Shown here piece after piece: positions 18,577 to 21,621 of a stretch of 64,000 nt of DNA. Every line of letters starts with the position of its first letter. Within the stretch, counting starts at the first letter, position 1. The stretch spans positions 7,194,001-7,258,000 of the forward strand of contig CM119371.1 of assembly GCA_051294905.1 (NCBI GenBank), given 5' to 3'. The notes beneath the pieces are model-generated. The model had not been told where the DNA came from and ran no database searches. It saw nothing but the letters and a program-made list of their open reading frames with translations. The position numbers and the translations under genes were made by a program. The DNA is from Botryllus schlosseri (Eukaryota).

Positions 18577-18788
18577 GTCGAGTAATCGGTGCCGATAAGA
18601 ACCACTGCATCTTGCATAAGGCGGTCGGATTGTTCGCGAAACGCTGGTGTAACCCGTGAGGTGAGAGCGACCGATAATTCAATGACTCTGCGTTTTACTG
18701 AGCTTCCATTGTTCTCGCACCAATAAATTGACCGCAAACGAAGTGATCGCCACTTACAGCTTACGTTGTCTTAAACTAGTATAGTAAA

Positions 18789-19301
18789 ATTGGATAGTAT
18801 ATTCATATTGAAATGAACCCGAATATTTTTGGCTGAAACTCGTCAGGAGTAATCGTCAGCAACTAGTAGAGAGAATTGGAAAGAACATTGTATATCAACA
18901 ATCGCACAAATCGGATTATCGGCAAAAATCTGTTAGATAATCCTATTTGTGCGAATAATTATCGAAACGACCGATTTCGGATCGTTGGGCGGGGCCGTTC
19001 ACAATTCCATTTGTGTGCCTTGGAGTCGACCTTTATCAAAATACACCAACCAAAACTCTGTCATCAAAAGGAGTTCGTGTACCACCAAAAAATAGTACAT
19101 TGAACGCTCTCTCTTTCGAAATTTCATGCTGGTGACGTCATATTTTGTGATACGATTGTTGATATACAATGTTCTTTCCAATTCTCTACCACTTGCTGAC
19201 GATTACCCCTGACGAGTGTCAGCCGAAAATATTCGGGTTCATTTCAACATGAATATACTATTCAATTGTATATTGAAGTTCTGTACCTCCAAGAAGCTCT
19301 T
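18789..19301 (+). mobile_element. Penelope-like retroelement 3' fragment (GIY-YIG C-terminus) with inverted pseudo-LTR
   Basis: IGKNLLDNPICANNY..FRIVGRGRSQFHLCALESTFIKIHQPKLCHQKEFVY at about 18915-19103; 18790-18910 inverted against 19145-19265; 13-bp TSD ctagtatagtaaa at 18776-18788 and 19302-19314. Confidence 0.88.
19195..19239 (+). ncRNA. Minimal type I hammerhead ribozyme in the Penelope pseudo-LTR
   Basis: accc-CUGACGA-g(ugucagc)c-GAAA-auau-UC-gggu: both core boxes, helix I accc/gggu, palindromic helix III, UH cleavage site; upstream gcugac complementary to loop II. Confidence 0.78.
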
Positions 19302-21621
19302 CTAGTATAGTAAAGTAATTTAATAGCAAAATGTCTATTTCTGTTCTTTTCTGACCTTAACCAAACCTCTTGTTTTATTGAATTTGAATATAGTTTATAT
19401 AGTCCTCAACTATTGGCGCAGGCTCGAATTGTATCATATGAACATGTAAATGGGTATAGGGTGATGTATTGCATTTTATCAATTGGTTTCTCTATTCTCT
19501 ATTTTGGCTGGTAACTGTAAACTGAAGCTATATACAATTACTCACATAGTTTAGCAGTTCTACCTATATATGTGAGTGATACGGCGCCTTATTGTGTGTA
19601 TATCGAACTCTATATTCGTTCATCGGTTCAGAATCAATGGCCACTCAATATGTATTTCAGACAGCTAGCAAAATTCAATGACATAATCATGCCTCATACT
19701 TCAAAAAGGTAACTTGACTCGAATCAAAATGTGCAATAACTCGAAATCACTAGTGACTCGAAGTTAGTGACTTGAACCCAACACTGGTGCAGGGGCGGTC
19801 AACCCGTGGCCCGCGGGGTAATCCTCGAAATTAGTTACATTATCAGACCGTAATTTACCAAAACCAAATAACCAAAATCTGATCAGCTTGGTCACGAAAT
19901 TTGGGATTTTCCGACTAAAATATCAGATTCGACACATTGGCGTAGCCAGGGGTCAGCCACATTTTCCGTGGATGGTCGTTTATGATCATAGAGTACCGGC
20001 ACAATGTTTCGCGTAGTACTCAAAATCTTCGATATTTATAAGTTCAAGCGCCGAATAATCCTGACCAAATGAGCCCAGCAGTATATGCAGAGAGAGGCGT
20101 CCCGCAAAATCTTAATTTTCCATGTATAATGCGCAATATTTTATCAATTTTCTGATCTAAAATAGGGTTGTGGGTATTATACATGGGTACAACAAGCCTT
20201 GAAAAAAATCTATCCGATAAAATTTGAAATCACACCTTTCTTCATGTTTGTTTCCAATCGCGCATCACTTTCAGCCATTGTGCCCAGTAATTCGTATTAT
20301 CAGTGTAACTCGCTGCCGATTAACGAGAGTCGTCTGCATAGCACGCAACCTCCTGCTGTGTTGGTTTGCTGCATGTGCAATCCTCACTAATTCATCGCGT
20401 CAACGACAAGCGTGAACAATTTCATATACAACACCCCATGTGCGCAAGATGTAATCGTTGGCCTATCCACTACAGTCCCATCTACAACAGGCCTGGTGAT
20501 CACGACATAATCGTTGGCCTGAGCAATCGCATCTGTAATAGGCCTCGTGCGCAAGATGTCGTGGTTTAGTGTATTTCGACTTGACCTGTGGTGTTCTAGT
20601 GTATTTTTTATCAAAATTCTGCAAATCTGGTGTTTTTCCATGAAGAAATACATTCAACGGAATATTTTATTTTGATGTACTTTACATAATATATACTTTG
20701 ACGAATAATAATTATTATCCGTCCATACCGGCCCTGTGGATATACACAGGTATCACTCAGGCATCACTCTGGATCATGGGTGTCCTCAGGTTGTTCTGGT
20801 ACTGATGTATCATGCTTCGAGTGTTCTCGGGGTGTGTTTAAGCTTGTCTACTGATCAGGTATCACTCTGCATCAAGTTTCTTGAAAAAATCGCACCTTTG
20901 TATGCACACCCAAAAGAGACCATGAATTCTCTATGACAACATTGATGTTTCATTTCTCTAATTAATGGACAAGCGTAACATAATGCATTTCGGAATGGAG
21001 ATATAAAATTCTGTTCTTCTTCGCTCCTTCAACATTTTTTTTGTTCTTTTTGTCACCTTATAGGATAGGTAATGGATCCCACATAAACTTTCGCAGCTTC
21101 GGCTATAGCTGCGTACCAAGCGTCGGAAGTAACCACTCAGGCAGTGGTTCTCAACGGGTGTATGTAATTTGTCAATGTCCCCAATGTCGACGTGTATCTA
21201 TTTCGTCAATGACGACATCCCCGACAATGCTGCTCGGGGCCTAAACTATGGTTGTAATGACTCGAGTCAGGATTTTTCAATGCCCGCAATCAGAATATTC
21301 ACCCAGTAATTTGTCAATGTCGACGTGTATCTATTTTGCCTTGCTCTTTCCATTCCTTGTGATTGCATTACAATTAGAATAAAAGCTACACAATGTTTTC
21401 CAATTTTGATTCTAAGATGGAAAAACTGGAATAAATATTAGAAATATGATAAGAGCGCATAATATTCCAAGTTTACAAATCAGATTAGAATTCGTATTAC
21501 TGCATTAATGTACTTTGAGTAGCAGGTGCTTAGCCGGAAGTAAGATTTCACTATACGTTATAAATTTTCGTCTTTGATGTTTTTTCGGCATAACCGACTT
21601 ACGATATGCATAGAAACTACA

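Follow-up and report, generated by a model that had tools for sequence, protein, structure and literature searches.

Hammerhead ribozymes are found in Penelope-like elements (PLEs) in tens of thousands per genome, and their role is unsettled. Among the closest described systems are the minimal type I hammerheads reported by Cervera and de la Pena (2014; PMC4209133), which lie in the pseudo-LTR (pLTR; LTR, long terminal repeat) beside the start of the open reading frame (ORF), possess a full CUGANGA / GAAA / UH core, a stem I of 4-5 bp, a G10.1-C11.1 pair and a stem III palindrome implying action as a dimer, and are extremely abundant as solo motifs of truncated copies. The window analysed here is the whole of a 64,000-nucleotide (nt) stretch from Botryllus schlosseri (GenBank assembly GCA_051294905.1, contig CM119371.1, positions 7,194,001 to 7,258,000, forward strand), and it contains a 5'-truncated PLE insert of 513 bp (18789-19301) that carries a hammerhead-like core module at 19205-19238 on the forward strand. 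The module shares the complete core, the pseudo-LTR location, a 4-bp stem I, the G10.1-C11.1 pair, a palindromic 15.x-16.x element and the extreme abundance as a solo motif of truncated copies. What sets it apart from the published PLE hammerheads is its stem II, a single base pair closing a loop that would pair with a leader strand upstream of stem I.

Outside PLEs, a pseudoknot hammerhead was characterized by Perreault et al. (2011; PMC3088659), which cleaved at >1.2 per min and needed its pseudoknot, and the authors predict that about 40% of hammerheads use such a contact. Like the window module, the Perreault example has a one-bp stem II and a 6-bp Watson-Crick pseudoknot joining the stem I and stem II sides. 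It is, however, of type II topology (loop I with the 3' tail), bacterial/metagenomic, furnished with a normal stem III and active as a monomer, whereas the module described here would have type I topology (5' leader with loop II), resides in a eukaryotic retrotransposon, has a dimer-type stem III and is known from sequence alone. The SGC/CSG non-circularly permuted hammerheads (Nucleic Acids Res 2023; PMC10085705) likewise have helices that can be drawn only with pseudoknots; their three conserved blocks are reordered, whereas the window module keeps the ordinary type I block order and would receive only the 5' strand of stem II from upstream. The 'HHR_core' motifs of Naiad PLEs (Craig et al. 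2021; PMC8557442) are similar in showing a cuganga-(7-17 nt)-gaaa core that falls outside stem/loop descriptors. Compared by published description, Naiads differ in belonging to another PLE clade with an N-terminal endonuclease, and the passages on these motifs describe no leader/loop pairing. In Poseidon PAc of Anolis carolinensis (Frangieh et al. 2024; PMC11167929) the hammerhead is placed, as here, at the pLTR-ORF junction, and insertion units end inside the ORF start. The PAc hammerhead has a canonical stem II, at which the ORF already begins; in the window family the ATG follows the predicted cut by 14 nt, and a pseudoknot would replace stem II. A 2026 preprint on animal retrozymes contains nothing on stem II or pseudoknots. 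The architecture has a validated precedent outside PLEs and is not a new class; what may be new is a pseudoknot in PLE minimal hammerheads, and this may already be drawn in Lunse et al. (2017) or in the supplementary figures of Cervera 2014. The suggestion of a variant architecture in an initial annotation of the window finds support for PLE minimal hammerheads and, given the precedent outside PLEs, not as something new in general.

We lean towards the view that the module is a true descendant of the PLE minimal hammerhead in which a pseudoknot between the leader and loop II takes the place of the hairpin stem II. The right arm of the insert reads gcugac-gauu-ACCC-CUGACGA-g-u-gucagc-c-GAAA-auau-U-C-GGGU, and every nucleotide of the hammerhead core (C3 U4 G5 A6 N7 G8 A9, G12 A13 A14, A15.1-U16.1 and H17) is present at 19209-19234, with the core box CUGACGA at 19209-19215, GAAA at 19225-19228, auau at 19229-19232, U19233 and C19234. 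Stem I is formed by ACCC (19205-19208) with GGGU (19235-19238) over 4 bp, G10.1 (19216) pairs with C11.1 (19224) around a 7-nt loop composed of U19217 and GUCAGC (19218-19223), and stem III is the palindrome AAUAUU (19228-19233). The leader strand GCUGAC (19195-19200, forward strand) is the complement of 19218-19223 and overlaps an upstream CUGACGA box at 19196-19202. All positions that the initial annotation assigned to the module hold, and its description of the hammerhead as intact is accurate for the sequence: the right-arm module (19195-19238) is identical to the common sequence of the family, and the core is perfect in all young copies.

With just 9 nt between CUGACGA and GAAA there is no hairpin stem II, which would be reduced to the single G10.1-C11.1 pair. 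Six of the 7 loop bases would pair with the leader, which lies 4 nt upstream of stem I, and G10.1-C11.1 would stack on this 6-bp leader/loop helix to give a 7-bp quasi-continuous 'stem II'. In an H-type pseudoknot, loop 1 crosses the deep groove; U19217 alone would make the corresponding crossing in the geometry proposed here. The 4-nt linker GAUU would join the far ends of the leader/loop helix and stem I, holding stems I and II side by side. We infer that this fold forms in the RNA and cleaves, with the cut predicted after C19234; since stem III is only a palindrome, cleavage would need two copies of the module, either in tandem arrays or in trans.

The comparison drew on 80 metagenomic loci encoding relatives of the family protein (P0001, described below). 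Textbook minimal hammerheads were found in 17/80 by our own descriptor, which did not cover the U3-A8 core variant. These 17 cases have one unpaired nt, a stem II of 4-7 bp, a palindromic stem III (ACGU/ACAUGU/AAUU/AUAU) and a spacer of 15-22 nt, and those checked are situated after the ORF stop and ahead of the next ORF start, in the same place as the window module. The closest relatives comprise 5 distinct sequences (L070, L071/L072, L096, L128 and L130/L133; 59-68% amino acid (aa) identity), all of which possess a homologous module directly before the ATG. Together with the family's own sequence and the window they gave 7 sequences for a structure test, in which 94.3% of cells pair under the model of pseudoknot, stem I, G10.1-C11.1 and stem III, a score reached by 1/500 shuffles, while slid controls all had <=44% of cells paired. 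The pseudoknot by itself pairs in 40/42 cells. Three compensatory changes were found: 25-53 G-C/U-A, the outer pair of the pseudoknot; 35-68 A-U/U-A in stem I, which has 4 bp in the window and 5-6 bp in the relatives; and 60-61 U-A/G-C in the middle of stem III, whose palindrome turns from AAUAUU into AAGCUU. The helix III palindrome noted in the initial annotation is in this way kept by the relatives in altered form, and its proposed tail-loop II pseudoknot gains credence as a conserved Watson-Crick pairing of at least 4 bp beside a one-bp stem II, in a comparison of low power that involves effectively three lineages. The position of the module and the conservation of its pairings with compensatory changes are established, as are the identity and anatomy of the element considered below.

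A pairwise comparison points in the same direction. Between the family and L133, all 10 differences in columns 25-69 fit the hammerhead model: 6 are compensatory, and the other 4 are N7, H17, one pair gained, and C3 to U3, a change that leaves a wobble pair with G8 possible. The more distant L109 (47% aa identity) reads GCAUU-guac-ACAG-CUGAUGA-g-AAUGC-u-c-GAAA...UC-CUGU with an ATG 21 nt later, that is, the same layout with a 5-bp pseudoknot of unrelated sequence. The covariation of gcugac with gucagc that had been proposed as a check is seen across the relatives as one double change and not within the host genome, where no second family with an altered module was found and older copies (L052-L069) exhibit scattered single changes around the same ancestral module. 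A search for further relatives by module pattern returned 0 matches in genome contigs and 0 in viral contigs.

Several observations weigh against this reading. Metazoan PLE hammerheads, as their published consensus is given, have one unpaired nt and then a 6-8-bp stem II (PMC4209133), and the module has no such long stem II, our descriptor assigning 1 bp to the 9 nt between its boxes. The minimum free energy (MFE) fold consists of a CUGAC/GUCAG and a CCGAA/UUCGG hairpin, both small, in which the two core boxes are buried; with -10.5 kcal/mol it does not stand out from shuffles (z -0.35 for 56 nt and -2.0 for 38 nt). The box that the initial annotation took as the core reads UUGAAGA in 3/5 relatives, with U3 opposite G8, UUAAAGA in L070 (G5 lost, G5A) and UUGUAGA in L128 (A6 lost, A6U), which amounts to U3 in 5/5, and a GxG mismatch falls in the middle of the pseudoknot in 2/5. 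The three compensatory changes all separate the same two lineages and are therefore three single events on one branch, and the 5-bp match in L109 has a chance of about 8% by a loose estimate. Among 11 loci examined, 0 copies have their 5' end at the predicted cut. The hammerhead of PAc is moreover dispensable for insertion in vitro (PMC11167929).

To these points must be added the RNA reads. Reads from two single-cell RNA runs were aligned to a tandem array of the family (L047:4700-7390), and in these libraries, which are ill-suited to capturing cleavage ends, there was neither a concentration of read ends nor any joint at the cut predicted for L047 (5342|5343). Coverage is almost confined to L047:5150-5419, the final ~250 nt of the unit, where both strands are represented and depth rises to several hundred; over the ORF body it is 0-5. 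Most reads are chimeric with flanking DNA, and 62-66% of the aligned reads run on into unlike sequence; the signal is therefore that of dispersed truncated copies within other transcripts. Run X21, from another organism, gave 0 reads on L047:4700-7390. The absent cleavage signal agrees with the poor in vitro cleavage of PLE hammerheads reported in PMC4209133 and with the dispensability noted above, and does not settle the matter.

A serious if rather doubtful rival is that the module is a degenerate, non-catalytic remnant, descended from a PLE hammerhead and no longer folding or cleaving as one. Its conservation would then come from a promoter, a 5' untranslated region, the start codon or binding of an element protein, with the RNA in two hairpins or some other fold. 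The missing hairpin stem II, the sequestering of both boxes in the MFE fold, the off-consensus core of the relatives and the lack of read ends at the cut site all speak for it, and so does a diverged variant of the family (two copies, see below) that is without the core altogether. The CCAAT, TATAAA and TCATT motifs just upstream of the module in relatives make a constraint other than RNA structure likely. Published parallels favour it as well: Naiad PLEs have stemless 'HHR_core' motifs and multiply in the absence of canonical hammerheads (PMC8557442), and hammerhead catalysis is unneeded for PAc insertion in vitro (PMC11167929). Against the remnant stand the three compensatory changes, all of which fall on pairs of the hammerhead and pseudoknot and 0 on the two-hairpin model, the survival of the stem III palindrome through a double change, the recurrence of the same architecture with different sequence in L109, and a core that in all young copies of the family matches the consensus perfectly. 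As a conserved structure the two MFE hairpins fare no better than shuffles: 80% of cells pair under that model, there is no compensatory change, and its score is matched by 500/500 shuffles.

The pseudoknot-bearing hammerhead, with its core at 19209-19215, must also be set against another register, which we judge to be highly improbable. Here the core would be the upstream CUGACGA (19196-19202), with a 22-nt spacer and a cut after U19233, and the box at 19209-19215 would become part of stem II in a CUGAC/GUCAG hairpin. The box that is invariant in both lineages is indeed the upstream one and not that of the initial annotation; CTGACGAT, comprising the upstream box and the next base, is identical in the family and 5/5 relatives, which the box at 19209-19215 is not. 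Our own descriptor also reports the upstream register in the window (spacer 22, stem I of 5 bp including 2 G-U), and a 22-nt spacer is within the 15-22 nt of canonical relatives. The hairpin, however, would lie 6 nt from A9 and 2 nt from G12 with no G10.1-C11.1 pair, the spacer has no conserved hairpin in the relatives (the best being a 3-bp GUC/GAC in L070 and L133), and stem I is unshared, the family giving 3 bp (2 G-U) and the relatives needing a different cut position and still mispairing. The invariance of CUGAC is equally explained by its role as a strand of the pseudoknot. We rejected the upstream box as core, there being no shared stem I and no conserved hairpin adjoining A9 and G12. 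As a separate observation, the two CUGACGA boxes of the family are 13 nt apart (window 19196-19215), and the downstream one is two substitutions away from the UUGAAGA of relatives. The same two substitutions create the 5-bp CUGAC/GUCAG hairpin that competes with the pseudoknot, and it is possible that hairpin and pseudoknot constitute a conformational switch.

Chance was evaluated by running our own descriptor on 300 dinucleotide shuffles of the window. A core with a stem I of >=3 bp is expected ~1.97 times per window and was observed 2 times, which alone is not significant. A stem I of >=4 bp with a palindromic stem III is expected 0.073 times, and with a spacer of <=25 nt in addition 0.033 times, against 1 observed. 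The bare pattern is only mildly improbable; coincidence is rendered unlikely by its place 14 nt ahead of the ATG of a PLE ORF. Rfam (release 15) found no hammerhead in the window at the gathering score, nor at E<=10 in a 901-nt search. Rfam likewise misses the canonical PLE minimal hammerheads of 8 control loci (L074, L093, L108, L113, L126, L134, L144 and L149), and in L113:2400-3300, searched alone at E<=10, the canonical hammerhead was still missed. Because these positive controls fail too, we give the Rfam silence no weight; the PLE minimal hammerhead class is effectively invisible to Rfam. Across the genome, RF00163 gave one weak match elsewhere (22.8 bits, E 0.99; 73 of ~70,000 first-look candidates scored). 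That a terminal inverted repeat or MITE-like (miniature inverted-repeat transposable element) repeat merely happens to contain CUGANGA...GAAA, as the ~2 relaxed matches expected per window and the Rfam result might suggest, can be dismissed as next to impossible, for the element is demonstrably the 3' end of a retroelement encoding a reverse transcriptase (RT) and GIY-YIG domain, the strict descriptor expects 0.03-0.07 matches per window, Rfam also misses textbook cases, and the match sits just before the ATG of the PLE ORF, where relatives carry hammerheads.

Surveys assign ribozymes to PLE clades by descriptors that require a hairpin stem II. We propose, as a tentative idea that may well not hold, that the module represents a distinct and uncatalogued class of PLE hammerhead, with a leader-loop II pseudoknot for stem II and a stem III formed only between two copies, that evades both Rfam and the RNAmotif descriptors of surveys. 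If a pseudoknot is able to replace stem II in PLEs, such surveys undercount; the class could account for some PLE lineages scored as 'HHR_core' only or as having no hammerhead, and the claim that some PLE clades are without hammerheads would need to be re-tested. The ribozyme of the family would in that case cut 14 nt before the AUG (3 nt in the closest relatives) and remove the capped leader, leaving an almost leaderless 5'-OH RNA as a possible switch between mRNA and template for transposition. The module could also be of use in studying how minimal a hammerhead can be. In relatives (L070:5967-6036, L072:301-370, L096, L128 and L133), CCAAT boxes were seen within 70 nt upstream of the module, along with a TATAAA box ~45 nt ahead of it and, immediately 5' of the leader strand, a TCATT motif resembling an initiator. 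With an internal promoter at this place, the mRNA would begin with the pseudoknot strand, and its capped leader would be lost on cleavage, just 3 nt ahead of the AUG.

The insert is an endonuclease-bearing PLE, in agreement with the initial annotation, which had called it Penelope-like. A search for the family (4,724 first-look candidates, 40 scored, 99 matches listed) showed that, among the matches listed, most copies cover element positions 130-513 only and then extend upstream into longer sequence, with a common 3' end and variable 5' ends that reflect variable 5' truncation. Longer copies contain an ORF in which the RT motif YVDD is followed by a GIY-YIG-like C-terminus (VVYEY...YVGRT...R...H motif). 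In a tandem array (L047, G000:C16:20950000-20959999; also L048), four head-to-tail units with a period of 2,692 bp contain a frame of 860 codons that is open in two units and of 778 codons in one; this partial-tandem pseudo-LTR organisation goes together with the heavy 5' truncation of other copies. The left edge of the array in L047/L048 has an inverted partial copy. The protein from the first ATG of the open frame of a tandem unit (P0001, 848 aa) matches Pfam RVT_1 at E 7.8e-9 and GIY-YIG below threshold at E 0.027; in a relative of 59% identity (P0013) GIY-YIG passes the cutoff (27.5 bits, cutoff 22.6), and the two proteins together point to a single RT ORF with a C-terminal GIY-YIG domain. 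At E<=1e-10 the relatives of P0001 number 842 database proteins, all unnamed, the best being 64% identical.

Copies of the family are up to 100% identical to one another and lie on many contigs, from which it follows that the family is young, and to judge from these sequences it looks recently active. The window copy, ~94% identical to young copies, is an older insertion, ~5-6% diverged, of this still-young high-copy PLE. A diverged variant of the family, of ~73-78% identity, was encountered at L049:2240-2450 (the same as L050/L051). Its two occurrences are 99% identical; the leader ...TTGCTGACGATTACCCC is retained, and the core, GAAA, the stem I 3' strand and the ATG are missing.

At the locus itself, the insert is bracketed by a 13-bp direct repeat, CTAGTATAGTAAA, whose left copy (18776-18788) is 100% identical to the right copy (19302-19314). 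It is the sole direct-repeat family detected in 18600-19500, and bears out the target-site duplication (TSD) of 13 bp that had been assigned to the element. Since the TSD opens with bases like those with which the element itself would continue (CA...), the border between the two is uncertain by 1-2 nt. The TSD length is variable in the family, being 9-11 bp in five other, similarly built copies (L002, L003, L004, L008 and L009). Most of the insert (18918-19301, forward strand) is a direct, 5'-truncated PLE body, the last ~384 nt of the insertion unit, which is ~94% identical to young tandem units: positions 2510-2900 of a unit match 18918-19308 at 94.1%, and element positions 130-513 match many copies at 95-96%. 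The forward strand carries in order the 3' end of the RT/GIY-YIG ORF (18909-19103; aa 785-848 of P0001, tblastn 90.6%) with its stop TGA at 19101-19103, the spacer between this stop and the next ATG of tandem units, which is the pseudo-LTR core (19104-19248), and the start of the PLE ORF (19249-19301; aa 1-18, MNILFNCILKFCTSKKLF; tblastn aa 1-20 to 19249-19308), within which the insertion unit terminates.

The left part of the insert is an inverted 5' arm on the minus strand (18789-18904), the reverse complement of 19153-19266, which contains pLTR spacer, the hammerhead module and the first 18 nt of the ORF. The arms pair as 18785-18872 with 19183-19270 (88 nt, 91% complementary) and as 18870-18904 with 19153-19187 (35 nt, 100% complementary), and positions 44-170 of the tandem unit match 18910-18785 at 91%. 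The inverted twin of the module (18817-18860, minus strand, aligned to the family sequence in row L001 1584-1507) is dead, as originally described, with 3 differences from the right copy: ACCC to ACUC, GUGUCAGCC to GUUUCAGCC, which hits the pseudoknot strand (GUCAGC to UUCAGC), and GAAA to AAAA (G12 to A). It folds differently from the right copy (-7.1 kcal/mol, z +0.6). Since the right copy is solo, its twin is dead and on the opposite strand, and any read-through RNA would fold the arms into a hairpin of ~120 bp, the hammerhead motif at this locus is an inert relic, and the insert is to be annotated as a dead retrotransposon fragment, ordinary in itself. At the junction of arm and body a short second inverted piece (18902-18920, minus strand) is the reverse complement of 18936-18954 (19 nt, 95%); comparison of the junctions among 9 copies showed it to be particular to the window copy.

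The way in which the insertion was built can be read from copies of the same type. In tandem units a ~148-nt spacer containing the module separates the ORF stop from the next ATG, which is 14 nt past the predicted cut, and the 3' end of the insertion unit (...AAGAAGCTCTT) lies ~50 nt inside the next ORF. The 3' ends of copies are of two classes ~35-40 nt apart (ref 762-771 and 801-809). The right end of the window insert belongs to the outer class and the start of its inverted arm to the inner, 'no-tail' class, which results in a 35-nt tail on one side only (19267-19301, forward strand; the arms stop at 19270). The inverted arm begins at the same nucleotide (ATT[AG][AG]ATAGTAT) in 9/9 similarly built copies, and the arm/body junctions differ among all 9, though the sizes are similar. 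The inverted arms were accordingly formed anew at each insertion, and a non-autonomous subfamily in which the 513-bp inverted-arm unit is copied whole is ruled out.

This anatomy agrees with published PLE features, namely inverted 5'-truncated copies with a one-sided tail of 30-40 bp in the elements treated by Craig et al. (2021; PMC8557442), and, in the PAc work of Frangieh et al. (2024; PMC11167929), reverse transcription from two internal sites, both target strands being cut and extended, together with a hammerhead placed where pLTR and ORF meet; the two adjacent starts explain the 30-40-nt tail of PAc. By the same mechanism, both target strands at the window locus would have been cut and extended, one cDNA beginning at the outer reverse-transcription start site to give the right end with its 35-nt tail and the other at the inner site to give the inverted, tail-less left arm. 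The staggered target cut would have produced the 13-bp duplication, and the copy was 5'-truncated at the time of insertion.

A further inverted pair was seen at L101:2958-3054, which has the same canonical minimal hammerhead once on each strand, the box starts being separated by 34 nt. Downstream of ORF ends in L147:~1340-1390, L136:~2180-2230 and L088 we also noticed by eye minimal hammerheads with a U3-A8 core (UUGAUAA / UUGAAAA), a core variant described by Cervera and de la Pena (2014; PMC4209133).

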